Assembly: GCA_018052455.1 (NCBI GenBank)
Contig: JAGPNE010000001.1
Coordinates: 295,261-359,260 of the forward strand
Direction: 5' to 3'
Length of the DNA stretch: 64,000 nucleotides
DNA from: Candidatus Fermentithermobacillaceae bacterium
Lineage (GTDB): Bacteria; Bacillota; Sulfobacillia; Fermentithermobacillales; Fermentithermobacillaceae
Numbering within the stretch: the first letter of the stretch is position 1; every line of letters begins with the position of its first letter. Positions 2,736 through 36,382 of this stretch are shown here, in pieces. The notes under the pieces are model-generated. The model ran no database searches and was not told the origin of the DNA. It saw only the letters and a list, made by a program, of their open reading frames with translations. The translations under genes were made by a program, and so were the position numbers.

Positions 2736-4402
2736 TACTCCACCGACACAATGTAGTAGTATAAAGATTGTCCGCCAGAATGCACCTCTACATCGCAAGC
2801 GTCGCCAAAACCATCTGCTAACATCTCATAAACTTCCCTAGACGTGCTTTCATCAACGTCTTGTCCGTAGTATACAGTTATCACGGAATCGTCTTCCCGC
2901 ACCATCTTGGCCATGAGCGCCTCAAGCACTTCCTGGGGATCGTTCCCTACTACCTCTACCTTGCCGTCTGCTAGGCCAATTATGTCACCCTTTTTGAATA
3001 CGTGTTTTCCGAATTTGCCGTTCCGCGCGGCAAATGTAACCTCACCAGTCTTAACACTGCGAATTGCTTTTCCCGCTTTGCGCAGATTATACTCCATATC
3101 TTCATCTAGATTGAGCGACAAAAGAGCAGATATCCCCTGCGGCACAGTTTTGGAGGGCACAATGTACATTCTCCGACCAGTAAGTCTCTTAGCCTGTTTC
3201 GCTGCTAAGAAGATATTTGAATTATTGGGCAAAAATATCACCTTGTTTGTACCCAATGAGTTTACTGCCGCGGCTACGTCGCTTGTTGACGGATTCATTG
3301 TAAGGCCGCCATCCATCACCAGATCGCATCCGAGGTTCTTCATTATAGCCTTGAGCCCGTCGCCGGTTGCCACGGAGATTACGCCTATGTTTTTCGCAGC
3401 GCTCAGTGGCAAACTGCCCAGTCTATCCTGCGCATTTACAGTCTTTGCGGCATCTCTAAGCTTAAGGGCCGCTTTAGATTGTTCAATCATATTGTCGATT
3501 GTAACTTCAGCGATCTGCCCATATTGCCTACACACACCTATTACTCGTTCGGGTGCCTCAGTGTGAATGTGAACTCTCACAACGTCGCCTGAGCCCACAA
3601 CGAGCATAGAATCTCCCAAGGGATCAAGTGCCTGCCTTATATCCTGAATCGAAAGACCATCTCCGAGAATCAAGAGTTGAGTGTCGTAAGGATTCTGAAT
3701 ACTAACAATGTCTTCTTCATGAACAACTGGGGTAGATACGCTCGGGGCAACCTCTTGTAACACATCGTGTTGAATAGACTGCTCCTTCTCATACCATGCA
3801 AGAGCTCCTTCAACAATGTAAACAAGGCCTTGGCCACCCGCGTCTACAACACCCGCCTCTTTCAGTACAGGAAGCAATTCGGGAGTGCCCTGTAAGACCT
3901 CTTTGCCTCTAAAAACACATTCCCTGAGAAGCTGTTCGATAGTCACATCGCCAACCATTGTCTGGGTCAACGCCGCGTCTCTCATTCCCCGCAATACGGT
4001 GAGAATCGTTCCCTCCACAGGCTTCATGACAGCTTTGTACGCAGTTACAACGGCTTCTTCGATGGCGAGCGCGATATCTTCGGGCCCTGCACAATCTTTG
4101 TCTGCAAATCCTTTGGCAATGCCTCTTAGAATCTGCGATAGAATAACCCCCGAATTTCCGCGCGCTCCCATGAGCGCTCCTCTGCTCGCAATTTCTGAAG
4201 CCTCACACAGTGCAATCGCAGATTTCCCGTTGAGGCTTTCAACAGCAGAACACAAGGTGAGGTACATATTTGTTCCTGTATCTCCGTCTGGTACCGGAAA
4301 AACGTTTAAGGCATCCACTTCTTCTTTTCTATGGTACAAATAGTCTTTCGCGTGGGCAAGTATGTGTATAAACAAATCGCCATTCATATATAGCTCGGTC
4401 AT
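2735..4402 (-). CDS. yloV: DAK2 domain fusion protein (YloV family)
   Basis: 555 aa; DAK2 domain N-terminus (DGDTGTNM) plus DegV-like C-terminus; position between yloU and recG matches B. subtilis. Confidence 0.85.
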   Translation of the reverse strand: MTELYMNGDLFIHILAHAKDYLYHRKEEVDALNVFPVPDGDTGTNMYLTLCSAVESLNGKSAIALCEASEIASRGALMGARGNSGVILSQILRGIAKGFADKDCAGPEDIALAIEEAVVTAYKAVMKPVEGTILTVLRGMRDAALTQTMVGDVTIEQLLRECVFRGKEVLQGTPELLPVLKEAGVVDAGGQGLVYIVEGALAWYEKEQSIQHDVLQEVAPSVSTPVVHEEDIVSIQNPYDTQLLILGDGLSIQDIRQALDPLGDSMLVVGSGDVVRVHIHTEAPERVIGVCRQYGQIAEVTIDNMIEQSKAALKLRDAAKTVNAQDRLGSLPLSAAKNIGVISVATGDGLKAIMKNLGCDLVMDGGLTMNPSTSDVAAAVNSLGTNKVIFLPNNSNIFLAAKQAKRLTGRRMYIVPSKTVPQGISALLSLNLDEDMEYNLRKAGKAIRSVKTGEVTFAARNGKFGKHVFKKGDIIGLADGKVEVVGNDPQEVLEALMAKMVREDDSVITVYYGQDVDESTSREVYEMLADGFGDACDVEVHSGGQSLYYYIVSVE

Positions 4403-12650: not shown

Positions 12651-14108
12651 TTATTTATCTAAGTCGCCAAATCGGAAGGGCCCTTTCTGCCGACCTGCCA
12701 AGAAAGCTTTGGCTGACATCCGCCTCTTGCCTTCCGGTTGCACTTCTGTAACTGCTAGCAATCCTTCGCCACAGCGAACCAACAACTTAGATTCTTCGAT
12801 TCCAATTATCGTACCCGGAGCTGAGTCTGAATCCTCTTTCTCATTTGAGTCAGCCAGTTCGATTTGCCATATCTTAATACGCTCGTCACCAAAGGTGGTA
12901 ACTGCACCTGGAGCGGGCGAAAGCGCTCTTACTAAATTATGGATCTCTGTAGCAGGACGGGTCCAGTCGATCACATCTTCGCCAGGCTTCAGATGAAAAG
13001 CAACGGTCTTCACCTTTTCATCTTGAGCAATACGCGGAGCTGAGCCTTCATAAATTGCGTGAATCGACTCGAGTAATGCATCCGCACCTACGACCGAAAG
13101 GCGTTTTTCAAGTGTGCCTAGAGTCTCGTCGGGCCCAACTGGAACAACTCTCTGAAGGCATATGTCACCGGAGTCCATGCCTTCGTCCATGTACATTATT
13201 GATACACCGACTTCGGTTTCTCCGGCCATAAGTTGCCTCTGAATGGGATTACCTCCTCTGTACTTAGGCAGCAAAGAAGGGTGCACATTTAGGCACGCAT
13301 ATTTCGGAATCTCGAGCACTTCCTTTGGCAGCTTCTGACCAAAAGCAACCACTGCTATAAAATCGGGCTGAACTTCCTTGATTGCCGAAACAACATCAGG
13401 ACAGCTCATGTCCTCAGGTGTGATAACCTTGAGTCCAAGTTCGGTAGCTCTTTTCCTGACAGGGGTTGGCATTAGGATTCCAGTTCTGCCATACGGGCGA
13501 TCTGGTTGAGTGACTACAAGTGGAACGCTAATCCCCGCCCGAATAAGGGCGTCCAATGATGGCAAAGAAAACTCTGGACTACCCATAAAAACACAGGTAA
13601 GACCGAGTTCCTTTTCATTCCCTTCCTCGGTATTTTCTTCCTCCTCAATCTCGGTTATAGATATCGCTTTGTCTACAAACATAATACCATCTAGATGGTC
13701 TATCTCGTGACACAAAGCCCTGGCAAGGAGGCCCTCTCCTTCAACCCATGTAGTCCGACCGTCTCTATCCAATGCCTTGACAAGCACCCGCACAGGTCTT
13801 TCCACTTCTCCAACAAAACCAGGCCAACTCAGACATCCTTCCCACTGGACTTCTTTCTCATCGGATTCAGACACTATCTCGGGATTCACCAAGAAGTACG
13901 GTCCCTCCCCTACATCCAAGACTACAAGCCGCTTTGAGACGCCTACCTGTGGAGCAGCCAATCCAACTCCCGACGCTGCTCTCATGCTATCGAGCATGTC
14001 ATCGAGTGTTTTCTTGACGCTGTTATTCACCCTAGGAACGGGTTTCGCTCTTTTTCTAAGTACAGGGTCATCAAAAGTACGTATTTCGATATTACCCAAT
14101 AGTATCAC
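12651..14108 (-). CDS. def-fmt: fused peptide deformylase / methionyl-tRNA formyltransferase (Def-Fmt single ORF)
   Basis: N-terminal ~165 aa is Def (GLAAPQVG, EGCLS, HEIDHLDG motifs). An acidic linker EIEEEENTEEGNEKE follows. The C-terminal ~310 aa is Fmt (VFMGSPEF, HPSLLPKYRGG). Junction codons were checked by hand and are in one frame with no stop and no usable internal start. Confidence 0.85.
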   Translation of the reverse strand: MILLGNIEIRTFDDPVLRKRAKPVPRVNNSVKKTLDDMLDSMRAASGVGLAAPQVGVSKRLVVLDVGEGPYFLVNPEIVSESDEKEVQWEGCLSWPGFVGEVERPVRVLVKALDRDGRTTWVEGEGLLARALCHEIDHLDGIMFVDKAISITEIEEEENTEEGNEKELGLTCVFMGSPEFSLPSLDALIRAGISVPLVVTQPDRPYGRTGILMPTPVRKRATELGLKVITPEDMSCPDVVSAIKEVQPDFIAVVAFGQKLPKEVLEIPKYACLNVHPSLLPKYRGGNPIQRQLMAGETEVGVSIMYMDEGMDSGDICLQRVVPVGPDETLGTLEKRLSVVGADALLESIHAIYEGSAPRIAQDEKVKTVAFHLKPGEDVIDWTRPATEIHNLVRALSPAPGAVTTFGDERIKIWQIELADSNEKEDSDSAPGTIIGIEESKLLVRCGEGLLAVTEVQPEGKRRMSAKAFLAGRQKGPFRFGDLDK

Positions 14109-14286: not shown

Positions 14287-16257
14287 TCAGAACGCGCCGA
14301 AAGGTTCTTCGAGGTCTACATATATCTTCACCTGTAGGGACGTAACAATAGGCAAAGATGTCTTCACAGCTTCGGTCGCGCAGTTTCTGACCGGCGACTT
14401 CACCATTATGTGCCATCTGTACTGCCCTCGCACCTTAACCTTGGGAGCAGGGCTGGGGCCTAAAACAGTGATTTTGTCTGACTTGCTGTCGATTTCGGCA
14501 GCCAATAGTTCAGACGCCTCAATGACTTTTTCCTCGGACTTTCCTGCAACAGTGATCCTCATGATGAATCCGAAAGGAGGGTATTGCAGGGATTTTCTGT
14601 TCTGTGTCTCTATAGCATAGAAAAACTCTGGATCCAACACTCCCTTTATGGCATGGTGCCCTGGGTTTAGTGTCTGAATGATGAAGCGCTTCGTGCTTTC
14701 TGTGTAAGTGGATCTTTCGTTACCGTTCAAAATGCCAAGCAGTTTCATGAGCAGCCTAAAGACCTCTTCTGGCGCTAGATAGTCCGGGAGATTCAACATG
14801 TTGTCGGCAGATAAAACACCCAAAACGCTCACTTCAGGAATCTCTGAGACGCTGAAGATCATCTGGGTACATAGCAAACACGAAGGTCTCTGTGACTCAA
14901 ATCCTCGAATGGCTTCGTCAATGGACGCTTTGGAGTCTTGGTCCACTTGGAAAACCGGAACCCTAGGGAATCGCTTGTTGAACTCGGAACGAGCTCGATC
15001 TATGCCATAACCAATCAGTTTCCAGTCAACACCTTGACACACCGGGCACTGAACCGGAGGAGCGTGCCTATACCCACAAGTATGGCACACAAGCTCGCTT
15101 TCTTTCGAGTGATACGCCATGGGCACTGAGCACCTAGGACACAAGATAACATTTCCGCATTCGGTACATGCAAGACTAGATGCGGTGCCTCGTCTGTTTA
15201 GGAATAGAAGACCTCTCTCCTCGGAAGCAAACGCATCTGCCAGTGCAAGGTGCAGTTCTTTGCTTATAAGAACTCTTTTTTTGCTTCCCAAAAGACTGAC
15301 TATCTTCGAATCCACCTTATCGCTCATAGGGAACCCTTCCATAAAGCCGCAAAACCCGCCTTCCGATAGACCGACGTTCGCGACTACAGAGGGCACATAT
15401 GAGCCCAAGATGACGGAACAATTCTCATATTTGCCACGTAATCTCGCAACCGTTCTCCCGTTGTACTTGGGATACTCTTCTGCTTTGTAATGCAGTGATT
15501 CTTCATCATCGACAATGACGAGCCCTAGATCCCTTATGGGATTGAAAACTGCAGATCTCGTACCCACCACAATCCGTTTCTTGCCATCTTTTACATCGAG
15601 CCACTGCTTTTTTCTCGAAGCAGTGGTCATATCGGAGTGTGTTACAGCAATGGTCTCTTTACCGTAAATGGGCTCCAATCTTTCCTCGAAATCATGGGCT
15701 TTGTTGATCTCAGGTACAAGTACCAGCACGTTGGAACCAGAACTGATGGTTTTGTCGATTGCATCAACGTACGTCTTCCATCTAAACGAATCTGAACCTT
15801 GAACGAAGCACTCACGATTGGCCGAATCAAGTTTTCGCGGTTTTTCAAAGACGTAGAAGGCATTATCCTCTCGTACGCCTAATGCTGGCGGTTGTTCCTT
15901 CGTTAAAGCAGTTTTCTTGACCTGAGGCGGCCACAAGTAGCCCCAAAAGGACGAAATAGCAGCTAAGTAGTAATCTCTCAGCAGGAGACCAAAATCTAGA
16001 AGGTGCTTCGGCGGCAGGAAATTGATATCATACACAGCTATGATATCTTTCAGGTCAATTTCGGGCACAGTAGCAGGACGACCAACGACATACCCGTCCA
16101 CATTTCTCCGACCAAATGGAACATAGACTTTGGCACCGTAGGGTAGGAAACAATCTTGCGGCACTTTGTAGGTAAATGTCTTATCGCCCATCGTCGGAAC
16201 ATCTACCACAATATCTACGCAGTTGACGAGATCCACATCAATTCCTTCGTTCGTCAA
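14287..16257 (-). CDS. priA: primosomal protein N' (PriA) with degenerate ATPase motifs
   Basis: 3'-DNA-binding domain, helicase core and Cys-rich zinc region (CPRCS...CHTCG...CPVCQ) are present. The Walker A position reads GSDSFRWKT and motif II reads DDEES. Confidence 0.85.
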   Translation of the reverse strand: MTNEGIDVDLVNCVDIVVDVPTMGDKTFTYKVPQDCFLPYGAKVYVPFGRRNVDGYVVGRPATVPEIDLKDIIAVYDINFLPPKHLLDFGLLLRDYYLAAISSFWGYLWPPQVKKTALTKEQPPALGVREDNAFYVFEKPRKLDSANRECFVQGSDSFRWKTYVDAIDKTISSGSNVLVLVPEINKAHDFEERLEPIYGKETIAVTHSDMTTASRKKQWLDVKDGKKRIVVGTRSAVFNPIRDLGLVIVDDEESLHYKAEEYPKYNGRTVARLRGKYENCSVILGSYVPSVVANVGLSEGGFCGFMEGFPMSDKVDSKIVSLLGSKKRVLISKELHLALADAFASEERGLLFLNRRGTASSLACTECGNVILCPRCSVPMAYHSKESELVCHTCGYRHAPPVQCPVCQGVDWKLIGYGIDRARSEFNKRFPRVPVFQVDQDSKASIDEAIRGFESQRPSCLLCTQMIFSVSEIPEVSVLGVLSADNMLNLPDYLAPEEVFRLLMKLLGILNGNERSTYTESTKRFIIQTLNPGHHAIKGVLDPEFFYAIETQNRKSLQYPPFGFIMRITVAGKSEEKVIEASELLAAEIDSKSDKITVLGPSPAPKVKVRGQYRWHIMVKSPVRNCATEAVKTSLPIVTSLQVKIYVDLEEPFGAF

Positions 16258-17443
16258 GGATGGTCTTCACCTGGTCAATAATAGCCATGGCGACTTCAAA
16301 TTTGGATGAGGGACCCACATCTAGATGCGTGCCATCAGGCATTATTATCGTAACAGCATTGGTATCAGCACCAAAAGCCCTGTCTGGCAGTCCGACTTGA
16401 TTGGCACAGATAAAGTCGAGGCTCTTCTTGGTGATCTTGGCCATCGCGTTTTCCAAAATGTTATCTGTCTCAGCAGCAAAACCTACCAGAATCCTTGACC
16501 CTTTACTTTCTCCTAAGGTTTTCAAAATGTCTACAGTTTCGGCAAAAGAAAGATGCAGCAGGTCTCCTTGCTTCTTGATCTTTTCTCCGCTGAATCCAAC
16601 GGGCTTAAAGTCCTCCGGAGCGGCACAGCCGATAACGACCTGCACTTCAGGATATACCTCAAGACAGGCATCCAACATCTCTTCGGTTGTCTCCACCTTC
16701 TTCAATATGACTCCAGAAGGCGGCTCAAGTTGGCTGGGCCCTGACACCAAGTAAACCTTGGCTCCTCTTTTTGCGGCTGCCTCAGCTACCGAGTAGCCCA
16801 TTTTCCCTGTCGACGGATTGGAAATATACCTTACGGGATCGATCCATTCCCTGGTCGGACCGGCAGTTACAAGGAAAGTGACACCTGTGAGGTCTTTTTG
16901 AAACGAGAGGACACTCACTATTTTTTGGACGATCTTCTCGGGATCAGGTAATCTACCCTTTCCGGTAGCCCCTGACGCCAGTCGGCCGTATTCCGGTTCC
17001 AGGATCTCATAGCCTAATCGTCTGAGTCTGGAGATGTTTTCTTGGACTATCTTGTTCTCGTACATGTTATGGTTCATGGCCGGACATATCAGCCTAGGGC
17101 AAGTACAAGCCATAATTGTAGTAGTTAGAAAATCATCGGCTATGCCGTTGGCTATCTTGCCTATGCAGTTTGCCGTAGCCGGACACAGAACAAACAGATC
17201 TGCCATTTCTGCCAGAGCCACATGTTCAACATTCCACTGTCTAGGCTCTTCAAACATATGTACAATTACAGGTTGAGCAGAAATGGTTCTAAAGGTAAGC
17301 GGTGCAACTAACTTAGTCGCGTTTTCGGTCATTACTACGTGAGTTTCGGCACCGAGTTTTCTGAGTCTTGACACAACATCTACGGCCTTGTACGCAGCTA
17401 TGCCACCTGATACGCCTACTATTATGTTTTTTCCTGAAAGCAT
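16238..17443 (-). CDS. coaBC: bifunctional phosphopantothenoylcysteine decarboxylase / phosphopantothenate-cysteine ligase
   Basis: flavoprotein N-domain plus DFP C-domain, 401 aa. Confidence 0.9.
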   Translation of the reverse strand: MLSGKNIIVGVSGGIAAYKAVDVVSRLRKLGAETHVVMTENATKLVAPLTFRTISAQPVIVHMFEEPRQWNVEHVALAEMADLFVLCPATANCIGKIANGIADDFLTTTIMACTCPRLICPAMNHNMYENKIVQENISRLRRLGYEILEPEYGRLASGATGKGRLPDPEKIVQKIVSVLSFQKDLTGVTFLVTAGPTREWIDPVRYISNPSTGKMGYSVAEAAAKRGAKVYLVSGPSQLEPPSGVILKKVETTEEMLDACLEVYPEVQVVIGCAAPEDFKPVGFSGEKIKKQGDLLHLSFAETVDILKTLGESKGSRILVGFAAETDNILENAMAKITKKSLDFICANQVGLPDRAFGADTNAVTIIMPDGTHLDVGPSSKFEVAMAIIDQVKTILDERRN

Positions 17444-20292: not shown

Positions 20293-21804
20293 TTGCATTA
20301 TCCAAACCACAGACGACGGATACTCTTGGCTCTAGCTGTTTGTACTCTTGTGTCGATCTTTACAGTCTCAGCAAAGGCAAATGCCCAGTCGGCCCTGGTA
20401 TACCTGGATCCTGATGCTTACCCAAATATCTCGTTGAAGGTTGCTCCAGCAGAAGCACCGTATGCGAACGTCTTTCTTGACATGGCTCCAATAAATAGCC
20501 CGGTGAGACCTTACGTTGAAAACGGATGCACTATGGTACCCATAAGAGCGCTAGGAGAATCACTCGGAGCTCAGATTGGATGGGACTCAGTAAGCAAAGC
20601 AGCCACATATTCCAAGGGTGAAGTTAGTCTAATTGTCACCATTGGAACGCCTACTATTGAAACTGCTGGTGGTAGAACAATAGCTATGCCACAGCCTGCG
20701 GCTTTGGTTAACGGAACTACAATGGTGCCCCTGCGTCTTTTCAGCGAGATTCTGGGTTACAAAGTACTCTGGGATGCAAGTAGTCGTTCAGTCTACATAA
20801 CTTCAACACCAGGGCCATTGGAACTATGGGGATTCTATGCGTTGGGATCTTCAACCTATTCAAGTTGGAAGGATTTATTTGGCACCGAGTATCCTTACAC
20901 AAATTCTTCTGGTTTGGTCAAAAACACCCAAGGCATCTTTGCGGGGTGGTTTTTTGTGAATCAAGACGGAACGATAACATCTGACGAAAACCCAACTGGC
21001 TTTCAGAAACCTGATGGCTGGCCTTCGGTTATCCTTGAGTCGAAGCGGCAAGGTGTGAAACTGTTTTCAATGTACTTTGCCGACCAAGAGCACAGCAGTA
21101 TATGCACGTTGCTCGAGGACCCTGTTTTGAGAAGCAAACTCGCCAAGGAGATTTCAGCTGCATCTTTCGAGTATGACGGGGTGCTAATAGACTTTGAGGA
21201 AATCGGTTTTGGTCGATCTGCAGCTGATTCAGACATGAGGAACTTTAACGCGTTCCTGGATGTACTCCATGCTTTTTTGGAAGGGAAATCTCTGGCCGTA
21301 TCTGTGCCCCCTTTGAACGGCAGCTTCAAAGGCTATGATCACGCCCATATCGGCGAAATTGCCGATTCTATTGTGCTTATGGCCTATGGATATGAGGACA
21401 GGTCTATACCAACGTCGACTGCACCTTTTGACAAAGTTGACGAAGCGATAAGGCTAGAGATGGAGGTAGTTGATCCAGGTAAGATCATTCTTGGAGTTCC
21501 TGCATATGGGACTTTGTATGCTACGGATTCTGGAAAGACGTACCTTTTTTCGAAACCGCCGGCAAAAGATCTAGGGACCAAGCTTCCAGAATACTCGGCA
21601 GACGAGGCAACTGAAAGATCATTTGCCCCGGATAGCCTGTGCAATCACCTCAAATGGCAAGGACAGCAACTGGAGTACGAAGGTTTTTTGGAAGACGCAG
21701 CCAGTTTCAACGTCAGGATTAACATGGCAAAAAGATACGGAATAAAGGGCGTAGCAGTCTGGAGACTCGGGTTCGTTACGAAGACGGTTCTGGCGCTTCC
21801 ATAA
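20293..21804 (+). CDS. secreted glycoside hydrolase family 18 protein with copper-amine-oxidase-like N-terminal repeats
   Basis: ORF opens at 20221. TTG at 20293 gives a signal peptide (RRRILLALAVCTLV...AKANAQ) with a GAGGGG SD. Two Cu_amine_oxidN1-like repeats (MVPIRALGE, MVPLRLFSE) are followed by a GH18 core (LIDFEE). Confidence 0.75.
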   Translation: MHYPNHRRRILLALAVCTLVSIFTVSAKANAQSALVYLDPDAYPNISLKVAPAEAPYANVFLDMAPINSPVRPYVENGCTMVPIRALGESLGAQIGWDSVSKAATYSKGEVSLIVTIGTPTIETAGGRTIAMPQPAALVNGTTMVPLRLFSEILGYKVLWDASSRSVYITSTPGPLELWGFYALGSSTYSSWKDLFGTEYPYTNSSGLVKNTQGIFAGWFFVNQDGTITSDENPTGFQKPDGWPSVILESKRQGVKLFSMYFADQEHSSICTLLEDPVLRSKLAKEISAASFEYDGVLIDFEEIGFGRSAADSDMRNFNAFLDVLHAFLEGKSLAVSVPPLNGSFKGYDHAHIGEIADSIVLMAYGYEDRSIPTSTAPFDKVDEAIRLEMEVVDPGKIILGVPAYGTLYATDSGKTYLFSKPPAKDLGTKLPEYSADEATERSFAPDSLCNHLKWQGQQLEYEGFLEDAASFNVRINMAKRYGIKGVAVWRLGFVTKTVLALP

Positions 21805-21836
21805 ATCCGAATAGATGGAGCGCCAGAACCGACCCT
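21783..21836. repeat. copy D of the dispersed AGGGTCGGTTCT repeat (inverted pair forming a hairpin)
   Basis: GACGGTTCTGGCGCTTCC, then a 16-nt loop, then GGAGCGCCAGAACCGACCCT. The left arm encodes the GH18 C-terminus; the right arm holds the core in reverse orientation. Confidence 0.6.
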
Positions 21837-21841
21837 ATGAT

Positions 21842-23041
21842 TCAAAATTGGTCGTAGAGCAGCCCTGCGAAGCACATAAGCGCAAATTGGATTCCAGGAA
21901 CCAAAGAATCGATATAAAGAAACTCAGTGGTTTTGTGTCCGTTTTCTGATCGCTTAAAGCCCATTGTAACTGCAGGCCAGCCTCGTGACAAGGGAATATT
22001 AGAGTCTGTACTGCTATAACCAACGGTAAGGTCATAACCACACTCCTTGCCCAATTCCATAAGGCCCTGTATATAGGCACAGTCTACCGGAATCTCTCCT
22101 GTTGGCCGATCGCCTACAACTGCAATGGTATATTCGGTTCCAGTAGAAGAAGCTGCTTCTAAGAGACATTTCATTATTTCTTCTTCAAGTTCTACCAAGC
22201 ATTTTGCGTCTACCGATCTCATATCCAACAACATGTGCGCATCCTGGGCAATCGAGTTCACCGAATGACCCCCTTGAACAACGCCTACATTGTAAGTCGT
22301 CCTTGGAGACTCGGGCACCTGAATCCGCGAAATATTCGCTATTGCCACCCCTATGCCGTAGATGGCGTTCGTGTTGCCGAAACTGCCCCAGCTATGTCCC
22401 CCTTGCCCCTTAAAGTCTACGCGGAGTCTCCTACTGCCAACCCCTCCATTTACGATATAACCCATCCCTCCGTCTATGTTCAGAAACACCACGTTTTCGG
22501 GATGGATTCGGAACCCACCGAAGTCATAGTTTTCTATGTTATCACAGAAAAATCGTGCCCCTTTGAGGTCTCCTAACCCTTCTTCTCCTACCGTAGATAC
22601 AAGAACAACCGGATGTTCAAGAGGCAAGTGTTGCTTGAAGATCTTGCCCAGCAACAACATACATGCTAAAGAAGCTGAATTGTCACTAACGCCGGGCGCG
22701 GCAAGAATATTGCCATCTCTTTTCACAGTAAGATCTGTATCAAATGGAAAAACCGTGTCCATATGCGCCATACTTATAACGGTCTTTTTATGATCTTTTC
22801 CAGGGAAAAAGGCCAGCACGTTCCCAACCTCGTCCCTTGCAACGAAGGGGAAGCCCATGCTTCGCATCTTTTTCTCCAAGTATTCCGAACGCTGGTCCTC
22901 CTCATTGCTCGGCGCCGGAACCTGCGTAATTTCAGCAATGAGTTCAACATACTCCTCCTCACATGAACGCAGATAATCCAGCCCTTCCTTCACTACAGCC
23001 TTCTCTTGCAGAACCTCCGAGATCATCTCAATCCCTCCCAT
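21842..23041 (-). CDS. M20/M25/M40 family metallopeptidase
   Basis: HMDTV and VGEEGLGD M20 motifs. Start chosen at the internal Met because upstream ORF sequence is made up of repeat copy A. Confidence 0.75.
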   Translation of the reverse strand: MGGIEMISEVLQEKAVVKEGLDYLRSCEEEYVELIAEITQVPAPSNEEDQRSEYLEKKMRSMGFPFVARDEVGNVLAFFPGKDHKKTVISMAHMDTVFPFDTDLTVKRDGNILAAPGVSDNSASLACMLLLGKIFKQHLPLEHPVVLVSTVGEEGLGDLKGARFFCDNIENYDFGGFRIHPENVVFLNIDGGMGYIVNGGVGSRRLRVDFKGQGGHSWGSFGNTNAIYGIGVAIANISRIQVPESPRTTYNVGVVQGGHSVNSIAQDAHMLLDMRSVDAKCLVELEEEIMKCLLEAASSTGTEYTIAVVGDRPTGEIPVDCAYIQGLMELGKECGYDLTVGYSSTDSNIPLSRGWPAVTMGFKRSENGHKTTEFLYIDSLVPGIQFALMCFAGLLYDQF

Positions 23042-23060
23042 ACTGACTATTCTACCATGT

Positions 23061-23130
23061 CGCAAGGGGTCGGTTCTCGTGCTTCTCCAATAGGCAACAC
23101 TATTCCTCGAAAACAAAGCACGAGAACCGT
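23061..23130. repeat. copy A of the dispersed AGGGTCGGTTCTC repeat with a distal inverted partner
   Basis: GGGGTCGGTTCTCGTGCT at 23066-23083 and its exact reverse complement AGCACGAGAACCG at 23118-23130. Confidence 0.6.
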
Positions 23131-23156
23131 TCCGGATGTATAATATGTTTGGCAGT

Positions 23157-23376
23157 CTTCGGGGCAGGGTGAAATTCCCGACCGGTGGTAATGCCGCTTC
23201 GCAAAAGGCGGACGAGCCCGACAGCCCCAGCGGTTGAGTCCGGTGAGATTCCGGCGCCGACAGTTATAGTCCGAATGGGAGGAGACTGGGGTACTTGTAC
23301 TTTACCCACAGTTGCCTAAACTTTTTAACCCCCTGAAGTAGCCAGACTCAAACTTTCAAGTATCTAAGGGGGTTTT
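23157..23376 (+). promoter_or_regulatory. FMN riboswitch (RFN element) with SD-sequestering expression platform
   Basis: CTTCGGGGCAGGGTGAAATTCCCGACCGGTGGTA...AGCCGACAGTTATAGTCCGAATGGGAGGAG is near-identical to the B. subtilis ribD leader consensus. Downstream, AACCCCCT (23327-23334) is the exact complement of the SD AGGGGGTT (23367-23374). Confidence 0.85.
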
Positions 23377-23379
23377 CCA

Positions 23380-23901
23380 ATGGGAAAAAGTCATGATTCT
23401 CTAATCACATTGGTAGTCCTGGGTCTGGTAACTTCAATAGTATTAGTATCTACTATGTTTCTCAAGTTACCGACCGCAACAGGCTACGTTCACCTAGGAG
23501 ACGGCGTGATTTTCGCCACCTCCCTTGCTCTCGGCCCACTTTACGGCATCGTTGCAGGCGCTTTAGGTTCGGCTCTTGCAGATATCTTTGGCGGGTACGT
23601 AGTCTGGGCGCCATGGACTCTGGTCATCAAAGGAGTGGCAGGTTTCATAGTGGCCAAGCTAGGCTACAATAAGGACAAAAAGAAACAGGTTTTCGCTATG
23701 GTGCTAGCATCAATTTGGATCATAGCAGGGTACGCGGCGGGAACCGCCGTGATTTATTCGCCCATGGCAATACTCCCTGAAGTAATGGGCAACGTGGTTC
23801 AAACAGGTTCGGGTGTACTAATTGGCGCAGTCTTGAGTCCTGTATTGGGCAAGATCATGTCAGAAACAAGCCTGAGCAGTAAAGTCGTGAAAGAACACTA
23901 A
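23380..23901 (+). CDS. ribU: ECF-transporter substrate-specific (S) component, probably riboflavin RibU
   Basis: 173 aa, about 5 TM helices, ECF S-component-like. Substrate assigned from the upstream FMN riboswitch. Confidence 0.7.
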   Translation: MGKSHDSLITLVVLGLVTSIVLVSTMFLKLPTATGYVHLGDGVIFATSLALGPLYGIVAGALGSALADIFGGYVVWAPWTLVIKGVAGFIVAKLGYNKDKKKQVFAMVLASIWIIAGYAAGTAVIYSPMAILPEVMGNVVQTGSGVLIGAVLSPVLGKIMSETSLSSKVVKEH

Positions 23902-23911
23902 CAAAAAGACA

Positions 23912-23962
23912 CACGTTGTCCGGCAAAAACCTTACTTAGTGCCAAGGATGCCGGACAACGTG
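23912..23962. terminator. bidirectional hairpin terminator (14-bp arms cacgttgtccggca/tgccggacaacgtg)
   Basis: perfect inverted repeat between convergent ribU and the lyase gene. Confidence 0.55.
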
Positions 23963-23992
23963 CTCACATTAGATGCCTACTATTCTGATGGT

Positions 23993-25378
23993 CTACCCTA
24001 CTCTTTCAAACCTCGCAGTAAAGTGGCGGAGCACCGGTGCCTGGTGCACAATCCTAAGTCCCTTTACCGACGATGCGCGTTCTTTTATCGCCTTCATTGT
24101 CTTGGCCACATATTCCATGTGCCTGTCGGTATATACTCTTCTAGGTATTGCTAGGCGCACAAGTTCCATCTGAGGCCAAATATCTTCCCCGGTTTCAGAG
24201 TCTTTGTGCCCAAAAGCACAGCCACCCAGTTCGACTCCTCTAACTCCACCCTCTATGAACAATTCGACGGTCAGAGCCTGAGCCGGAAACTCATGCCTAG
24301 GGATATGCGGCAGCAAAGATTTTGCATCGACATATATCCCATGTCCTCCGCTAGGTCTTACGATCGGAATGTCACACGCGGTAAGAAGATCGCCTAGATA
24401 AGCTACCTGACCAATTCGGTCCTCCAGATAGCGCTCGTCAAGGACCTCTCTAAGACCTCTTGCCACAGCTTCGAGGTCTCTCCCAGCCAGCCCCCCGTAA
24501 GTCGCGAAACCCTCAAAAGGTATTTGCCACTCAATCGCCTTCTCGTAGTTGTCCTTATTGTTGAAAGCGATGAATCCGCCTATGTTGACCAGCGCGTCCT
24601 TTTTCGCGCTCATGGTGCAACCATCGCCATAGGAAAACATTTCTCTTACAATGTCTGCAATTGATTTATCTTCATACCCTGGTTCAAGTTTTTTAATAAA
24701 ATATGCGTTCTCAGCAAATCTAGCTGCATCAAAGAACATGGGAATATGATACTTGTCTGCAATAGCCCGTACTCCCCTTATGTTCTCCATAGAGACAGGC
24801 TGCCCGCCATTGTTGTTGCAAGTTATAGTTACCAATATCAGCGCCGCTTTGTTTTTATCTCTCTCGATTTCTTCTTCTAACAAGTTGAGGTCAAAGTTCC
24901 CCTTGAAAGGTGCTTCTGCAGCAACATCGTAACCGATTTCCGCGAGACAATTCACAGGCTGTGCTCCTCGAAGAAGAATATGTCCCTCCGTCGTGTCGAA
25001 ATGCATATTGCCCAGGACACGATCTCCGGGCTCCACAAAGATGTTCATGAGGATGTGTTCGGCACCCCTACCTTGATGTGTTGGCGCTACGTATTCGTAA
25101 CCCATAACGTCTCTTACTGAATCTTTCAAGTGATAGTAGTTCCTGCTTCCTGCGTATGACTCGTCTCCCATCATCATACCCGCCCACTGATAGTCAGACA
25201 TCGCTGCCGTACCGCTATCGGTAAGAAGGTCTATGTACACAGCGTCAGCAGGCAGGGAAAAGACATTGTACCCGGCCTCATTTATCAGTTGTTCACGCGT
25301 TGGCCTATCTACCAACTCTATTCTTTCAATCATCTTGATCCTATACGGTTCGGCATAGTCTTGGCGTTCTCTAAACAT
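23993..25378 (-). CDS. beta-eliminating lyase, tyrosine phenol-lyase / tryptophanase family (closer to TPL)
   Basis: WAGMMMGDESYAGS, PTHQGRGAE and EMFSYGDGCTMSAKKD motifs, the last closer to TPL than TnaA. Start at the Met preceding EPYRIKMIE avoids overlap with the downstream gene. Confidence 0.8.
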   Translation of the reverse strand: MFRERQDYAEPYRIKMIERIELVDRPTREQLINEAGYNVFSLPADAVYIDLLTDSGTAAMSDYQWAGMMMGDESYAGSRNYYHLKDSVRDVMGYEYVAPTHQGRGAEHILMNIFVEPGDRVLGNMHFDTTEGHILLRGAQPVNCLAEIGYDVAAEAPFKGNFDLNLLEEEIERDKNKAALILVTITCNNNGGQPVSMENIRGVRAIADKYHIPMFFDAARFAENAYFIKKLEPGYEDKSIADIVREMFSYGDGCTMSAKKDALVNIGGFIAFNNKDNYEKAIEWQIPFEGFATYGGLAGRDLEAVARGLREVLDERYLEDRIGQVAYLGDLLTACDIPIVRPSGGHGIYVDAKSLLPHIPRHEFPAQALTVELFIEGGVRGVELGGCAFGHKDSETGEDIWPQMELVRLAIPRRVYTDRHMEYVAKTMKAIKERASSVKGLRIVHQAPVLRHFTARFERVG

Positions 25379-25403
25379 GCGATCACTCACTTTCAAGGCA
25401 TTT

Positions 25404-26369
25404 TCACATATTGCACAACCTTCTGAACACGTCCTCAGCACTGGAGATAACATTATCTATGATTTCCTTACACGACTCCTCTTTGTGTACCATTGCAGCG
25501 ACTTGTCCGGCCATCAAGGACCCATATTCTACGTCTCCATCGACAACTGCTCGCCTAAGCGCCCCGGCCCCTATCGCCTCTATCTGTCTCGGCGAAAGCC
25601 CTTTGGATTCTGCTTCCAAGAATTGCTTCGCAAGCTTATTGTTGAGCACTCGTACCGGATGCCCTGTACTTCTACCAGTTACCACTGTACTCCTGTCACG
25701 AGCCGCAATAATTGCTTTTTTGTAGTTAGGATGAACGCTGCACTCCTTTGCGCAGACAAAACGAGTTCCCATCTGTACGCCGCTCGCACCAAGAGCCAAC
25801 GCCGCAACGAGGCCTCTTCCGTCATATATCCCCCCAGCGGCCACAACCGGAATTGACACCGCATCAACTATCTGAGGAACCAAAGGCATGGTTGCGATAT
25901 CGCCTATGTGCCCCCCACATTCCATTCCCTCGGCAATCAGGGCATCTACACCTGTACGTTCGAGCCTCTTCGCAAGGTTTACCGATGCGACCACGGATAG
26001 TGTCCTTATTCCTGCGTCTTTGAATCTCGGTATGTGTATGCCCGGGTTACCTGCTCCCGTAATTACGACGGGCACTTTTTCTTCTATCACTAGATCGACA
26101 ATATCCTCAGCCAACGGCGACAAAAGATACACATTGACGCCGAATGGTTTGTTCGTAAGCTCTCTTGTCTTATGGATTTCCTCCCTCACTACTTGGCGTG
26201 GAGCATTCCCTACACCTATGACTCCTAATCCGCCGGCCTCGCTTACGGCAGCTGCAAGTTTGCCTGTCGCTACCCACGCCATTCCACCTTGTATAATCGG
26301 ATATTGAACATTCAAAAGATCACAAAGGACAGTCTTGATAGCCACCAATCTCCCTCCTATTAGGTGCAA
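25404..26369 (-). CDS. nitronate monooxygenase / enoyl-ACP reductase FabK-like FMN oxidoreductase
   Basis: YPIIQGGMAWV NMO-family N-terminus, TIM-barrel FMN motifs. Confidence 0.8.
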   Translation of the reverse strand: MHLIGGRLVAIKTVLCDLLNVQYPIIQGGMAWVATGKLAAAVSEAGGLGVIGVGNAPRQVVREEIHKTRELTNKPFGVNVYLLSPLAEDIVDLVIEEKVPVVITGAGNPGIHIPRFKDAGIRTLSVVASVNLAKRLERTGVDALIAEGMECGGHIGDIATMPLVPQIVDAVSIPVVAAGGIYDGRGLVAALALGASGVQMGTRFVCAKECSVHPNYKKAIIAARDRSTVVTGRSTGHPVRVLNNKLAKQFLEAESKGLSPRQIEAIGAGALRRAVVDGDVEYGSLMAGQVAAMVHKEESCKEIIDNVISSAEDVFRRLCNM

Positions 26370-26445
26370 AACGAAACATCGCTAGAGGTACATAATCACC
26401 ATGCATACGGTCCTGCCGCATGTGTATGATACCATTCAGTATAGT

Positions 26446-27309
26446 CTACTTATTTTCTCTCAACACTTCCATTACAAAATACTCAGATGGGTCAGGTTGC
26501 CACCCGTTCTCTAGTAGTATGTTCTCAAACTGGTCGTCGCGAGATGGGTACAAACACGATATCGAAGGGACAAGTAGTTCTCTAGCCTTGGCACTAGCAA
26601 AATCCAGTGCTTTTTGAACATCGCCACCCAAAAAGCCCACATGCAAGCACAGATCTGCCTGGAATCTGGCACCCAAAGACACAAAAGTCCCGTCATCGGG
26701 ATCTGCATACACTTTGCCCTCATTGAGCCATGAGCGCACAAGCGCTGGCGTCATCTCGTAGAAAGTTCGATTCATCACACAAAATCTGCCCCACGTAGTC
26801 CTTGCTTCCGTTAACAGCTTATCTGCCAAAAGATCATCTACTTCTAGCTGAGGCATTCCCATAAGATCGGCATTGGCATCTTGGTTTACATTGCACGAAG
26901 CTCCCCTGTAGGTAGCTGCAACTTGAAAACCGAACTTTTCAGCTAGTCCCCTGCTGGTCTGGTTTCTCACACCAGTGTACATGCGCATAACCGATACGTT
27001 CCTTGCTTCGGCGAGGTCGAAAAAACGTCTATAGAACTGCTTGCCCACCCCCTGGCCTTGAGCTTCAGGTATAACTCGAAGCGCCTCTAACCAGGCGGAT
27101 CCGTCGTAAAGAATCGTGAGCTTACTTACGCCCACTAACTGTCCTTCCACCTCTGCAACGCACAACTCTCCAATATCGTCATGCACCCAGTGCTCAAACA
27201 TGGTCCCCAAATATCTCAAATTGGGAGTAGCTCTTTCTTCAATTTGCATAACTCTAGCTTTATCCTCAATCCTGGCCCGTCTTAAGGTCGCTTGCATGAT
27301 GAAACCCAC
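26446..27309 (-). CDS. GNAT family N-acetyltransferase (two-lobed)
   Basis: acetyl-CoA-binding motif QGQGVGKQ. Confidence 0.7.
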   Translation of the reverse strand: MGFIMQATLRRARIEDKARVMQIEERATPNLRYLGTMFEHWVHDDIGELCVAEVEGQLVGVSKLTILYDGSAWLEALRVIPEAQGQGVGKQFYRRFFDLAEARNVSVMRMYTGVRNQTSRGLAEKFGFQVAATYRGASCNVNQDANADLMGMPQLEVDDLLADKLLTEARTTWGRFCVMNRTFYEMTPALVRSWLNEGKVYADPDDGTFVSLGARFQADLCLHVGFLGGDVQKALDFASAKARELLVPSISCLYPSRDDQFENILLENGWQPDPSEYFVMEVLRENK

Positions 27310-27516
27310 CTTCTCTTCAGTATCCTGGTAGTCCAGCCGCCAGTTTGTAGAATGGAAACACTGACCTTAATCTACGATCTTAATTTCCACAGGAGTCCCC
27401 AGTTTCCTTCAGCATCTGGGATTCATATTGTTCCTCTGGTATGACCAAAAAACTGCTGCCCCCTTCTTGGGTCAAGGGAGCAGCGTCTAGAAATTCCTAA
27501 GCTGGGATATCAAACA

Positions 27517-28260
27517 CTAGAACGTGAAGTCCATTCGGACTGTCGCAGTTACAGTTACCTCGCCCGGCTCTATAGGAGTCATGTCAGACTGATTTTCCGC
27601 GAACTTCGCTATCTCCCGCGTAGAAGACACATAGACCCACCCGTCAGACATATTGATGACATCCTTAATCGTCACTCCCGCGGCTTTAGCCATAACTTCC
27701 GCCTTATGTCGGGCGTTTTCCACTGCCTTAGCCAGAACCTGATCCTCGTACTTCTTGGAGTCAAGCACTCCGAAGGATATTCCGCCGACATTTGTAGCTC
27801 CTGCCTTTACAGTCACATCTATTATCTGCCCTATTTTCCCAAGGTCCTTGATCCTCACTGTAACCGTGTTGTTGCACCTATAACCCACCAATACTTGCTG
27901 ACTGAAACGTACATTCTCCTGAGTCTCATATACTGGGTATAAGGAAAAGTTCGAGGTCTGAACGTCTTCTCTCGAAATTCCTTGTGCCAAGAGTTCCGAT
28001 ATGACTTTGTTCATGACCAAGGAGTTACTCGACTGAGCTTCTTGAGCTGTAAGTGCATTGGTTTCGACCCCAAAACTCACTCTAGCTACATCCGGTTTGA
28101 CGTATATTGTGTATTCGCCAGTTACCGAAATCACTCTCTTGTCAACCTCCTCGGCTCTTACTTCCGGAGCATAGATGCCTTGAAATACGGAGAGACAAAG
28201 CACAATCACGACCGAAAGCGCGATCCTCCCAACTCTTTTGGTGTCTTTGATAAAAGACAT
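27517..28260 (-). CDS. SIMPL domain protein (DUF541, YggE-like)
   Basis: N-terminal signal/anchor, SIMPL-family similarity. Confidence 0.75.
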   Translation of the reverse strand: MSFIKDTKRVGRIALSVVIVLCLSVFQGIYAPEVRAEEVDKRVISVTGEYTIYVKPDVARVSFGVETNALTAQEAQSSNSLVMNKVISELLAQGISREDVQTSNFSLYPVYETQENVRFSQQVLVGYRCNNTVTVRIKDLGKIGQIIDVTVKAGATNVGGISFGVLDSKKYEDQVLAKAVENARHKAEVMAKAAGVTIKDVINMSDGWVYVSSTREIAKFAENQSDMTPIEPGEVTVTATVRMDFTF

Positions 28261-28492
28261 CCCGGTTCATCTCCTTAGCATACTCATATTTGTGGATATC
28301 CCACATTCCGTATAGTCTGGCTTAAATGCTAACTCTTGTCTGTGCGTTCGCCTTTTTGACGTAGAGATCTGCGATATGTTCCAAAATGAGTAATCTTGAC
28401 GCTTTTCTAACTATTCTTTCTTCCTCAGTTTGATGGAATCTGTCAAGAAAGATAGAATCTTGTGTAGCAGTAAGTGTGTCTGCAAATAGTAA

Positions 28493-29143
28493 GTGTTAGG
28501 TGAGGACCATATGGAGTTTATTGCGCCTCGGAAATTGGGAAGATGCGAGGTAGTCATCAAAAGATCAAGATTTATAGGACAAGCCGCGCCTTGCTTTTCA
28601 GAGGAAAAAGCCTTAGATTTTATCTCCCAAGTAAGGCAAGAGCATTCGGGAGCAACTCATAACGTCTACGCATATTCCGTAGGAATCAGCACTTTTGCGG
28701 AAAGAGCCTCAGACGATGGGGAGCCAAAAGGCACTGCAGGATATCCGGTGCTTGAAGTCATCAAGAAACGGGACTTGCGGAACGTGGTCGTGACCGTGAC
28801 CAGATATTTTGGAGGAACCAAACTCGGTGCCGGAGGGCTAATACGCGCATACAGCAACACGGCTTCCTCAGCCCTTGACAATGCAGGTTTGGCCCTTTAT
28901 AGGTACCATGATTTGGTTACCATAGTTGTTGATTACGAGAAGTTCGAGAGTGTGCACAGGGCTCTTGAAGGGTTGGGATGTCCGATAAGAAATATATCTT
29001 ACACTGAAGAAGTCACAATTGCAGCTTTTGCTGCCCCTGAAGACATACACAATGTCAAAGCCCGTATACGAGAATTGACCTCAGACAAAGCACGAGTTGA
29101 AGTATCAGAAGGTACGTACCTGATAGTAGAAAACATGCAATAA
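28493..29143 (+). CDS. IMPACT / YigZ family protein (UPF0029)
   Basis: RSRFIG...HNVYAY...GEPKGTAG...YFGGTKLGAGGL signature. Confidence 0.8.
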   Translation: MLGEDHMEFIAPRKLGRCEVVIKRSRFIGQAAPCFSEEKALDFISQVRQEHSGATHNVYAYSVGISTFAERASDDGEPKGTAGYPVLEVIKKRDLRNVVVTVTRYFGGTKLGAGGLIRAYSNTASSALDNAGLALYRYHDLVTIVVDYEKFESVHRALEGLGCPIRNISYTEEVTIAAFAAPEDIHNVKARIRELTSDKARVEVSEGTYLIVENMQ

Positions 29144-29152
29144 CTGCAATCG

Positions 29153-29210
29153 AAACGGGGCGGGGTATCGTTACTAAAGATCTATCCCGCAGATACGCTC
29201 GCCCCGTTTT
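29153..29210. terminator. hairpin between convergent yigZ-like and M20D genes (aaacggggcg / cgccccgttt, T-run follows)
   Basis: 10-bp GC-rich stem, large loop, TTTT tract. Confidence 0.4.
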
Positions 29211-29237
29211 CTTTCCGAAGACTAAACAACACTCTCT

Positions 29238-32951: not shown

Positions 32952-33003
32952 CAGGATAAGACATGAGACACGGGAAGAAATCAAGTAGAACAGGAGGAAG
33001 AAT

Positions 33004-33858: not shown

Positions 33859-33877
33859 CAAGAAGTCTTTTCTCACA

Positions 33878-36371: not shown

Positions 36372-36382
36372 TATAGGTTTGC

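Follow-up and report, generated by a model that had tools for sequence, protein, structure and literature searches.

The priA gene of a Candidatus Fermentithermobacillaceae bacterium (Bacillota) probably encodes a pseudohelicase: a protein that would recognise forks and assemble the primosome as an ATP-independent scaffold, its motor having been dismantled throughout the lineage, Candidatus Fermentithermobacillia. The gene lies in a 64-kb stretch of DNA which was analysed as a whole and is called the window here. A sequence-only reading of the window had proposed that this PriA has probably lost its helicase activity and works through structure-specific DNA binding and loading. Sequence comparison and an AlphaFold model support that proposal, and they show degeneration beyond what was first noticed, in motif III, the second half of motif V, motif VI, the pre-beta-1 helix and the entire winged-helix (WH) domain.

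The priA locus

The open reading frame which the sequence-only reading had placed at 14287..16257 is found there on the minus strand, and both motif strings it had quoted are in the product, QGSDSFRWKTYV at residues 153-164 and VIVDDEESLHYK at residues 247-258. The full frame begins with a TTG, and residue numbers here refer to its 656-aa product. A GTG at 16236 is likely the true start, because it has the sequence GAAGGA 7 nt upstream, lies 1 nt past the coaBC stop, and is the choice of most gene callers. The product would then have 649 aa. The window PriA is 100% identical to MBP8613513.1, and at least 24 contigs, assembled independently and from independent samples, carry the 649-aa form with identical sequence.

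The gene order in the window is gmk-rpoZ-coaBC-priA-def::fmt-Zn peptidase-rsmB-rlmN-PP2C (prpC)-prkC-rsgA-rpe-...-fakA, with recG also present. The same order surrounds the gene in five divergent relatives, four of them at 74%, 64%, 39% and 37% identity and the fifth a deeper member of the clade (P0173). The gene stands at the orthologous Bacillota place, coaBC-priA-def-fmt, and it is the orthologous priA of this bacterium, at a single locus. The features of the gene and its surroundings are collected in Table 1.

It is quite improbable that the window gene is a diverged extra copy with a derived or accessory role, while a canonical priA elsewhere in the genome does the work of restart. Metagenomes do contain occasional degenerate PriA-like singletons whose close relatives are canonical, and these lend the idea some weight. 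Against it, the gene occupies the ancestral Bacillota position, from coaBC to def/fmt, in every relative examined, and the degenerate state is common to the whole clade. No canonical PriA from the family is among the named top hits. Within the 64-kb window there is no second priA, which the sequence-only reading had named as a finding that would count against it, nor any priA-like sequence besides recG.

Table 1. Coordinates of priA, its domains and motifs, and marker genes in the window. Percentages give how far the clade matches the columns that canonical PriA conserves.
Feature	Coordinates	Strand	Description
priA orthologue	14287..16257	-	656-aa ORF from TTG, stop included
3'-DNA-binding domain (3'BD)	15907..16221	-	residues 13-117; PF17764 57.2 bits vs 22.7 (residues 15-104); pLDDT >90; retained
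Variable linker	15814..15906	-	residues 118-148, ~30 residues; replaces the WH domain and pre-beta-1 helix of canonical PriA
Motif I / Walker A, degenerate	15769..15798	-	GSDSFRWKTY instead of GxTGSGKTEVY; 26%
Motif Ia	15706..15729	-	VLVLVPEI; retained, 71%; P182 invariant
Motif Ib	15541..15564	-	GTRSAVFN; retained, 84%
Motif II / Walker B remnant	15496..15510	-	DDEES (canonical DEEHx); acids kept, His lost; 76%
Aromatic-rich loop (ARL)	15463..15495	-	LHYKAEEYPKY; largely retained; 76% (block scored at residues 255-276); K258, P263 invariant
Motif III remnant	15388..15405	-	GSYVPS (canonical GSATPS); altered, 66%
Motif IV	15187..15207	-	LFLNRRG; retained, 84%; N354, R356, G357 invariant
Cysteine-rich region (CRR)	15025..15177	-	PF18319 37.2 bits vs 26; four CxxC pairs, 8 Cys, two Zn; fully retained, ~100%
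Motif V, half retained	14833..14877	-	LLCTQM kept; IFSVSEIPE replaces AKGxDFP; 49%; T464 invariant
Former motif VI	14698..14766	-	KLLGILNGNE replaces QVxGRAGR; no arginine fingers; 19%
PriA C-terminal domain (CTD)	14308..14667	-	residues 531-650; PF18074 61.6 bits vs 26.9; retained, 88% at its start
coaBC	16238..17443	-	upstream neighbour, marker of the conserved priA locus
def::fmt fused gene	12651..14108	-	downstream neighbour, marker of the conserved priA locus
recG	672..2798	-	context, outside priA; canonical SF2 motifs GDVGSGKT, DEQH, SAT and QLRGRVGR all intact

Retained domains and fold

The protein is a PriA by family model, domain content and fold, as the sequence-only reading had claimed. 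It scores 367.5 bits with TIGR00595 (PriA / primosomal protein N'), above the curated equivalog cut-off of 230.35, while the lineage-specific NF0040xx models all score under their own cut-offs. Its best solved relatives are the PriA proteins of K. pneumoniae and E. coli, with E about 1e-58, and its Pfam domains include the 3'BD, the CRR and the CTD. The AlphaFold model of the window PriA (pLDDT 89.7, pTM 0.90) has the PriA fold with two RecA-like lobes, and the top nine matches in a PDB fold search were all PriA, with TM up to 0.78. The closest structure is the E. coli delta-WH PriA, 6DCR_A, with E 2.9e-50 and TM 0.76/0.78.

The helicase lobes had been called retained, and both are present in the predicted fold. 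The Pfam models of the SF2 core fall under their gathering thresholds: DEAD scores 25.5 against 26, and Helicase_C scores 22.6 against 23.5 and is placed wrongly, on lobe 1. The 3'BD and the zinc region are retained as had been said, but the latter is not "Cys4-type". It is a full CRR with eight cysteines and two zincs, situated in helicase lobe 2, and none of its eight cysteines (C364, C367, C373, C376, C391, C394, C404 and C407) varies within the clade. Of 252 comparisons with conserved columns of the canonical CRR, 251 are matches.

The winged-helix domain that lies between the 3'BD and the helicase core is absent from the window PriA in both the alignment and the AlphaFold model. The linker in its place leaves about 100-150 columns empty when aligned with PriAs that have the WH domain, and its identity within the clade is 0.14. 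Its residues 129-146 have pLDDT below 50, and a canonical PriA modelled the same way as a control has the pre-beta-1 helix there, at 131-146. The WH domain is not universal, and canonical PriAs without it exist. Short WH-less PriAs of the Spirochaetota and Omnitrophota type (P0024, P0044, P0114) resemble the clade in length, at about 650-680 aa, but keep GxTGSGKT, DEEH and GRAGR, so the WH domain and the ATPase can be lost separately. The E. coli protein in 6DCR has the same WH-less domain set as the clade, but it is an engineered deletion with its ATPase motifs intact, and identity to it is just 24%.

Degeneration of the ATPase motifs

Each motif was scored by how far the clade matches the columns conserved in canonical PriA (Table 1). 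Motifs I, III, V and VI are lost or eroded by this measure, and motifs Ia, Ib, II and IV, the ARL, the CRR and the start of the CTD are retained. Two of the retained elements have described roles in binding DNA: the RR pair of motif IV corresponds to R427/R428 of E. coli PriA, which contact ssDNA in the PriA pore (PMC13594977), and the ARL has been described as taking part in DNA binding (PMC5175346).

Walker A shows four changes: G to F, K to R, T to W, and the deletion of one residue, on which the MAFFT alignment and the AlphaFold models agree. The sequence-only reading had correctly seen that the glycine-rich P-loop is lost, and the loop has two residues in the model where the canonical control has five. 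It had also seen one residue inserted, whereas relative to GxTGSGKT there is one fewer. R159 aligns to the Walker A lysine, a position that is K in 100% of the canonical set and R in 100% of the clade, and both R159 and the following W160 are invariant across the clade. Motif II is altered, as had been noticed from the change of DEEH to DDEE, but its acidic residues are kept, D250 being nearly invariant and E252 invariant in the clade, and only the histidine is lost. The loop that follows the former motif VI is modelled with pLDDT about 62.

Neither GxxxxGK[ST], DExH nor GRxGR occurs anywhere in the window PriA, and a canonical Walker A elsewhere in the protein, the other finding that had been named as telling against an inactive PriA, was looked for and not found. 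A GKS at residues 572-574 was considered as a relocated Walker A and rejected, as it has no G or A five residues upstream and forms a strand-to-helix turn of the C-terminal domain.

Loss of ATPase activity is expected because the catalytic lysine has become arginine and the P-loop, the motif VI arginine fingers and the pre-beta-1 helix are gone. Judging from the alignment and the model, the window PriA probably neither binds nor hydrolyses ATP. It is very unlikely that a non-canonical site, made of R159, the Walker B acids and further residues, still allows it to bind ATP and perhaps to hydrolyse it slowly, which would leave it a weak or regulated motor. Such residual use of ATP would fit the conservation of D250 and E252, the arginine in the lysine position and the purifying selection on both lobes, and E. 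coli PriA has itself been proposed to carry a second nucleotide site, weaker and of unknown location (PMC5778457). But in E. coli PriA the K230R change alone is enough to remove the ATPase, helicase and translocase activities, with restart via PriA-PriB preserved (PMC5778457; PMC13594977; for ATPase and helicase also PMC4504706). The window PriA goes further: the glycine before the lysine is Phe, the Mg-binding threonine is Trp, the loop is cut to two residues, both motif VI arginines and the pre-beta-1 helix are missing, and the DEAD and Helicase_C scores lie under their cut-offs.

Motif loss across the clade and selection on the gene

The loss of motifs is common to at least 21 protein clusters with 37–74% identity, which form one monophyletic group, and those clusters that carry a taxon name are Candidatus Fermentithermobacillaceae. 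All 21 clade sequences lack motif I, the histidine of motif II and motif VI, and GRxGR is found in none, whereas Walker A is kept in 99 of 99 other top hits (the best matches of the protein search). This pattern shows that the motif loss is not due to chance. Four of the new residues, R159, W160, C460 and K606, are invariant in the clade. Genome contigs were also scanned with the clade alignment, and the matches listed include at least one genome of the family (L001), whose PriA is also degenerate, and at least 79 canonical PriAs from other phyla; one of the patterns used for the contig scan, [DNG]LGL[IV][IV][VLI]D[ED]E, matches canonical PriA too.

The clade priA is under purifying selection. 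Comparing the window with its relative at 74% identity (L081) gave dN/dS of about 0.08, a rough ratio that rests on this pair only as synonymous sites are saturated against the 64%-identical relative, and neighbouring genes gave 0.04-0.10. In the same pair both lobes have pN of 0.14-0.15 while pS is about 0.7. The low dN/dS and the identical protein on at least 24 contigs indicate that the gene is neither a pseudogene nor an artefact.

The notion of a decaying gene under relaxed selection, or of an error of assembly or binning, draws on the many catalytic motifs lost and on a dN about 1.4-2.6 times that of neighbouring genes. It is effectively refuted by the reading frames, which are unbroken in all of the at least 21 clusters, even at identities as low as 37%, together with the dN/dS, the invariant new residues, the confident AlphaFold model and the recurrence of the same sequence on independent contigs.

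Constraint within the protein seems to have moved as well. In pairwise comparisons inside the clade the CRR (0.58) and the 3'BD (0.54) are more conserved than the lobes (0.47-0.50), while in canonical PriA the lobes (0.52-0.56) rank above the CRR (0.42) and the 3'BD (0.35). The two sets differ in taxonomic breadth and the comparison is one of ranking only, and by these sequence identities the ranking of domains is inverted in the clade.

Other degenerate PriA-like representatives turned up in a search of 1.84 billion proteins, scattered among canonical sequences. Grouping them as a second degenerate clade was considered and rejected: P0244, the representative that was looked at more closely, is a singleton, and the sequences nearest to it, at 47-49% identity, are canonical. 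These scattered cases do not count as established lineages.

A possible mechanism of restart

A PriA without a motor could still direct replication restart. The two RecA-like lobes would persist as a folded scaffold for binding DNA, with the nucleotide site dismantled. At an abandoned fork the 3'BD would bind the 3' end of the leading strand, and the lobes, the pore at motif IV and the CRR would bind ssDNA of the lagging strand. The protein could then nucleate loading of the replicative helicase through the loader proteins of the lineage without using ATP. By analogy with Bacillota generally, these partners are assumed to be of the DnaD/DnaB/DnaI type. A duplex lagging arm would have to be cleared by other enzymes, for example by the intact RecG encoded 11 kb away, which is a possible source of fork-remodelling activity.

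More tentatively, the former ATP cleft may have been rebuilt, and not just have decayed, as a new conserved element, made of R159-W160, F158, C460 and the hydrophobic replacement of motifs V and VI. Such an element might hold the RecA lobes in a single conformation, or it might serve as a new surface for binding. If it does, the clade PriA would be a naturally frozen, nucleotide-free minimal PriA, consisting of the 3'BD, locked lobes, the CRR and the CTD with no WH domain, and it would define the irreducible function of restart in a bacterium of the DnaD/DnaB/DnaI type. Loss of the PriA motor would then be a recurrent outcome of evolution, met also in Deinococcus-Thermus and sporadically in metagenomes.

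Comparison with known PriA systems

The sequence-only reading had pointed to an ATPase-deficient PriA in Deinococcus, and this precedent is real: D. radiodurans PriA binds forks and DnaB but neither hydrolyses ATP nor unwinds DNA (Lopper, Boone & Morrow 2015, PMC4504706). The clade and Deinococcus-Thermus share a natural, lineage-wide degeneration of motifs I and II, including the change of the Walker A lysine to arginine, with the rest of PriA retained. The departures described in PMC4504706 are in motifs I and II only, whereas the clade also departs in motif III, half of motif V, motif VI and the pre-beta-1 helix. It differs from that description too in its shortened P-loop with an invariant F/x-R-W and in having no WH domain. 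The clade, known from sequence and model, belongs to a different phylum (Bacillota, class Ca. Fermentithermobacillia), and from its host we infer that the two losses of the motor were independent in origin. As in the pseudohelicase described in PMC4504706, the protein descends from PriA with Walker A/B catalytic residues lost, including the lysine-to-arginine change, the trait is fixed in the lineage and the gene is kept by selection.

The E. coli variants K230R (priA300), K230A and K230D are changed at the same lysine as the clade, and they are motor-dead yet assemble primosomes and sustain restart by way of PriA-PriB (PMC5778457; PMC13594977). They differ in being engineered single substitutions with the rest of the motor intact, and in E. 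coli they fail in the PriA-PriC pathway. The PriB/DnaT/PriC set of partners is absent from Bacillota (PMC5778457). The PriAs of Bacillus subtilis and Staphylococcus aureus share their phylum and kind of locus with the clade, and act in a PriA-DnaD-DnaB-DnaI restart system (PMC5778457), which is presumed by analogy to be the partner system here. In that system PriA works as a helicase, and DnaD stimulates its ATPase, while the clade proteins are predicted to be inactive.

In a survey of PriA from 100 genera in 18 phyla, Deinococcus-Thermus was the sole exception (PMC4504706). The PriA of Fermentithermobacillia would be a second one, deep, lineage-wide and in another phylum, and its degeneration goes much further. 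It adds weight to the view that PriA is indispensable for recognising forks and nucleating the primosome, and that unwinding is an add-on. The clade proteins offer a natural minimal PriA for structural study of fork recognition and of CRR dynamics without nucleotide heterogeneity, and they let one ask what clears the lagging arm if PriA is unable to do so. Public databases annotate the proteins of this clade as "replication restart helicase PriA", which is a misleading name for them.

The gene and its product

The priA of the window is a single long ORF whose product carries QGSDSFRWKTYV at residues 153-164 and VIVDDEESLHYK at residues 247-258 (numbered from the 656-aa form), both as quoted in the sequence-only reading. 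Its identification as PriA was borne out: NCBIfam model TIGR00595 scored 367.5 bits (cut-off 230.35), the Pfam PriA 3'-DNA-binding domain, zinc ribbon and C-terminal domain were above threshold, with the generic DEAD and Helicase_C just under theirs, and the closest solved proteins were the K. pneumoniae and E. coli PriAs (E ~1e-58, residues 157-641). It is 100% identical to MBP8613513.1, annotated as primosomal protein N' of a Candidatus Fermentithermobacillaceae bacterium (class Ca. Fermentithermobacillia, Bacillota), and public names still label it a helicase. The 649-aa form from the GTG is the likelier product, because GAAGGA lies 7 nt upstream, the coaBC stop is 1 nt before this codon and most gene callers choose it. 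This arrangement also suggests that coaBC and priA are translationally coupled.

Coordinates of features in the window and, in the last line, at a relative's locus
Feature	Position	Strand	Description
priA ORF	14287..16257	(-)	656 aa from TTG
priA start 1, TTG	16257	(-)	656 aa; NCBI choice; 20 nt within coaBC
priA start 2, GTG	16236	(-)	649 aa; seven codons downstream of TTG
def::fmt fusion	12651..14108	(-)	485-aa ORF; Pep_deformylase 8-150, Formyl_trans_N 176-347, Formyl_trans_C 373-473
recG TTG, listed mechanically	2798	(-)	overlaps fakA end by 64 nt
recG in-frame ATG	~2735 (2735..2798)	(-)	MEKGISL...
Peptidase and amino-acid catabolism genes	~21800..47400
Gap at L084	4878..6185		1.3 kb, priA to Zn peptidase, no called gene

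The window reads gmk, rpoZ, coaBC, priA, def::fmt, Zn peptidase, rsmB, rlmN, PP2C phosphatase, prkC, rsgA, rpe, then fakA and recG, which is the classical Bacillota arrangement around priA. The order is kept around homologues of 74%, 64%, 39% and 37% identity (loci L081, L082, L083 and L084) and at the deeper relative P0173 (L085), so the window gene is the orthologous priA and no stray paralogue. A second intact priA, which the earlier reading had proposed to look for, was not found in the window, where tblastn with three canonical PriAs (those with intact motifs) matched only this gene, plus recG weakly. A canonical second copy elsewhere in the genome seems unlikely: a scan of the genome collection was dominated by canonical PriAs, but synteny favors the window copy as the ancestral one. 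The recG of the window has textbook motifs (GDVGSGKT, DEQH, SAT, QLRGRVGR), so it is priA specifically that has degenerated.

Loss of the nucleotide-site motifs

The window protein and its relatives, a clade of 21 protein clusters, were aligned with a canonical set of 44 PriAs that spans many phyla (alignment A3).

Clade match in A3: share of clade residues agreeing with columns where conservation among canonical PriAs is 80% or higher
Element	Clade match	Remark
Motif I	26%	nucleotide contact
Motif VI	19%	nucleotide contact
Motif V	49%	TQM retained, AKGxDFP gone
Motif III	66%	SAT to S-F/Y-V
Motif II	76%	D and E retained, His gone
Motif Ia	71%	DNA contact
Motif Ib	84%	DNA contact
Motif IV	84%	DNA contact
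Aromatic-rich loop	76%	DNA contact
Cysteine-rich zinc region (CRR)	251/252	zinc region
Start of C-terminal domain	88%

Opposite GxTGSGKT the alignment placed G-SDSFRW, with Gly to Phe, Lys to Arg and Thr to Trp; the glycine-rich loop is lost, as had been read, but the supposed one-residue insertion is one residue fewer. The reported departure from DEEH at Walker B stood, though it is limited to the His. Neither GxxxxGK[ST], which might have lain elsewhere in the protein, nor DExH nor GRxGR occurs anywhere in the window protein or any of the 21 clade sequences; of the top 120 matches, the 99 that fall outside the clade all keep Walker A. Residual, non-canonical use of ATP by the window protein is unlikely given the many independent lesions in its nucleotide site.

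At the position of the winged-helix (WH) domain the window protein has a variable linker of ~30 residues. This domain is also absent from many canonical PriAs whose motifs are all intact (P0024, P0044, P0114 and others in A1/A3; 652-680 aa), so WH loss is common and independent of ATPase loss.

AlphaFold2 run on A3 predicted the window protein with pLDDT 89.7 and pTM 0.90, and disorder limited to residues 1-9 and 129-146. The top nine Foldseek matches in the PDB were PriA structures, the best being 6DCR_A, an engineered E. coli winged-helix-deletion PriA (E 2.9e-50, TM 0.76/0.78), with Mfd, RecQ and RecG far behind. The canonical WH-less P0024, modeled from the same sequence set, served as control (pLDDT 90.7). 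Its strand beta-1 ends at G156 and is followed by a five-residue loop, ITASG, and a helix from K162, a classical P-loop, whereas in the window protein the strand ends at 153, the loop is two residues (G154-S155) and the helix runs from D156 with R159 buried four residues in. Before the strand, P0024 has a helix (131-146) with the LTxEQ segment, which is disordered in the window protein. Based on the shortened loop and the position of R159 within the helix, the phosphate-binding loop is predicted to be gone; we hypothesize that F158 and W160 fill the cleft.

A clade under selection

A search of 5.8 billion proteins showed a sharp step, with the 21 clusters at 459-1504 bits and the next match, a canonical PriA, at 338. 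Those clusters that have a name belong to Ca. Fermentithermobacillaceae or to unclassified Bacillota MAGs. The 21 are monophyletic in a neighbor-joining tree, and the midpoint root separates them from all else; every clade member has R159 and W160, and novel residues, among them C460 and K606, are likewise invariant. Deeper members (P0171-P0174) were added by profile searching 1.84 billion representatives, and in P0173 Walker B is also gone (VDVGED), yet synteny and the def::fmt fusion are unchanged.

Against the 74%-identical orthologue, priA has pN 0.144, pS 0.70 and dN/dS ~0.08, a rough ratio because synonymous sites are near saturation; five neighboring genes have 0.04-0.10, and both helicase lobes have pN 0.14-0.15. 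The gene is clearly under purifying selection, and the identical protein is found on at least 24 independently assembled contigs, one labeled anaerobic-digester metagenome. A pseudogene or artefact is effectively refuted. The ranking of domains by conservation is inverted: pairwise identity is 0.52-0.56 in the lobes, 0.42 in the CRR and 0.35 in the 3'-DNA-binding domain of canonical PriAs, and 0.47-0.50, 0.58 and 0.54 in the clade, where only the ranking is meaningful since the two sets differ in breadth.

Proposed function and precedents

E. coli PriA K230R is without ATPase, helicase and translocase activity but retains primosome assembly in vitro and PriA-PriB restart in vivo; the motor is required only for the PriA-PriC route, Mu transposition and some fork types (PMC5778457; PMC13594977). 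The pore of PriA holds ssDNA through R427 and R428 of motif IV, preprimosome assembly is controlled by how mobile the CRR is (PMC13594977), and the aromatic-rich loop contacts DNA (PMC5175346). In the window protein the elements kept are exactly those for fork recognition and assembly, and the elements lost exactly those for nucleotide binding, so it is probably an ATP-independent adaptor. It would recognize the fork without ATP and then nucleate the primosome, with partners presumed to be of DnaD/DnaB/DnaI type by analogy with other Bacillota (PMC5778457), and duplex lagging arms might be cleared by RecG or another helicase.

The Deinococcus precedent named in the earlier reading is real: D. 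radiodurans PriA binds forks and DnaB but neither hydrolyzes ATP nor unwinds DNA, and it has the same Lys to Arg change (PMC4504706). Deinococcus-Thermus was the notable exception in the survey of 100 genera in 18 phyla by Lopper et al (PMC4504706). A natural PriA pseudohelicase is already known, and the clade is a second lineage-wide case, in Bacillota; unlike the Deinococcus-Thermus protein it has no WH domain, and its nucleotide site is far more completely dismantled. No paper was found on the clade's degenerate PriA, and the sole paper found naming Fermentithermobacillus surveys the gas vents of coal fires by metagenomics.

About a dozen further PriA-like proteins without motif I and/or motif VI were seen among the 150 best representatives of the 1.84 billion searched (P0178, P0204, P0222, P0236, P0244, P0246, P0247, P0256, P0271, P0295, P0305). 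They are metagenomic, mostly WH-less and ~650-700 aa long, with a different replacement sequence in each, and in a rough tree they branch at scattered points among the canonical PriAs. The one examined, P0244, is a singleton whose closest relatives (47-49% identity) are canonical. These may be sporadic decays, extra copies or further small lineages, or the PriA motor may have been lost repeatedly.

Neighboring genes

A fused def::fmt (479-493 aa) adjoins priA in L081, L082, L083, L085 and L086, and is therefore a lineage trait. To date, functional def-fmt fusion has been reported from Exiguobacterium as something unusual (PMC12690207), and the present lineage appears to be a second, independent one. 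At L084, the P0021 locus and most divergent relative examined, the gap occupies the def::fmt position of all other loci. For recG, the in-frame ATG is the more plausible start. Elsewhere in the window, a tight cluster holds peptidases (three M20-family, an S9 prolyl oligopeptidase with PD40 repeats, an S15 X-Pro dipeptidyl peptidase) and catabolic genes (a beta-eliminating lyase, two glycine-cleavage P-protein subunits, an Orn/Lys/Arg decarboxylase), consistent with life as a peptide fermenter in anaerobic digesters.
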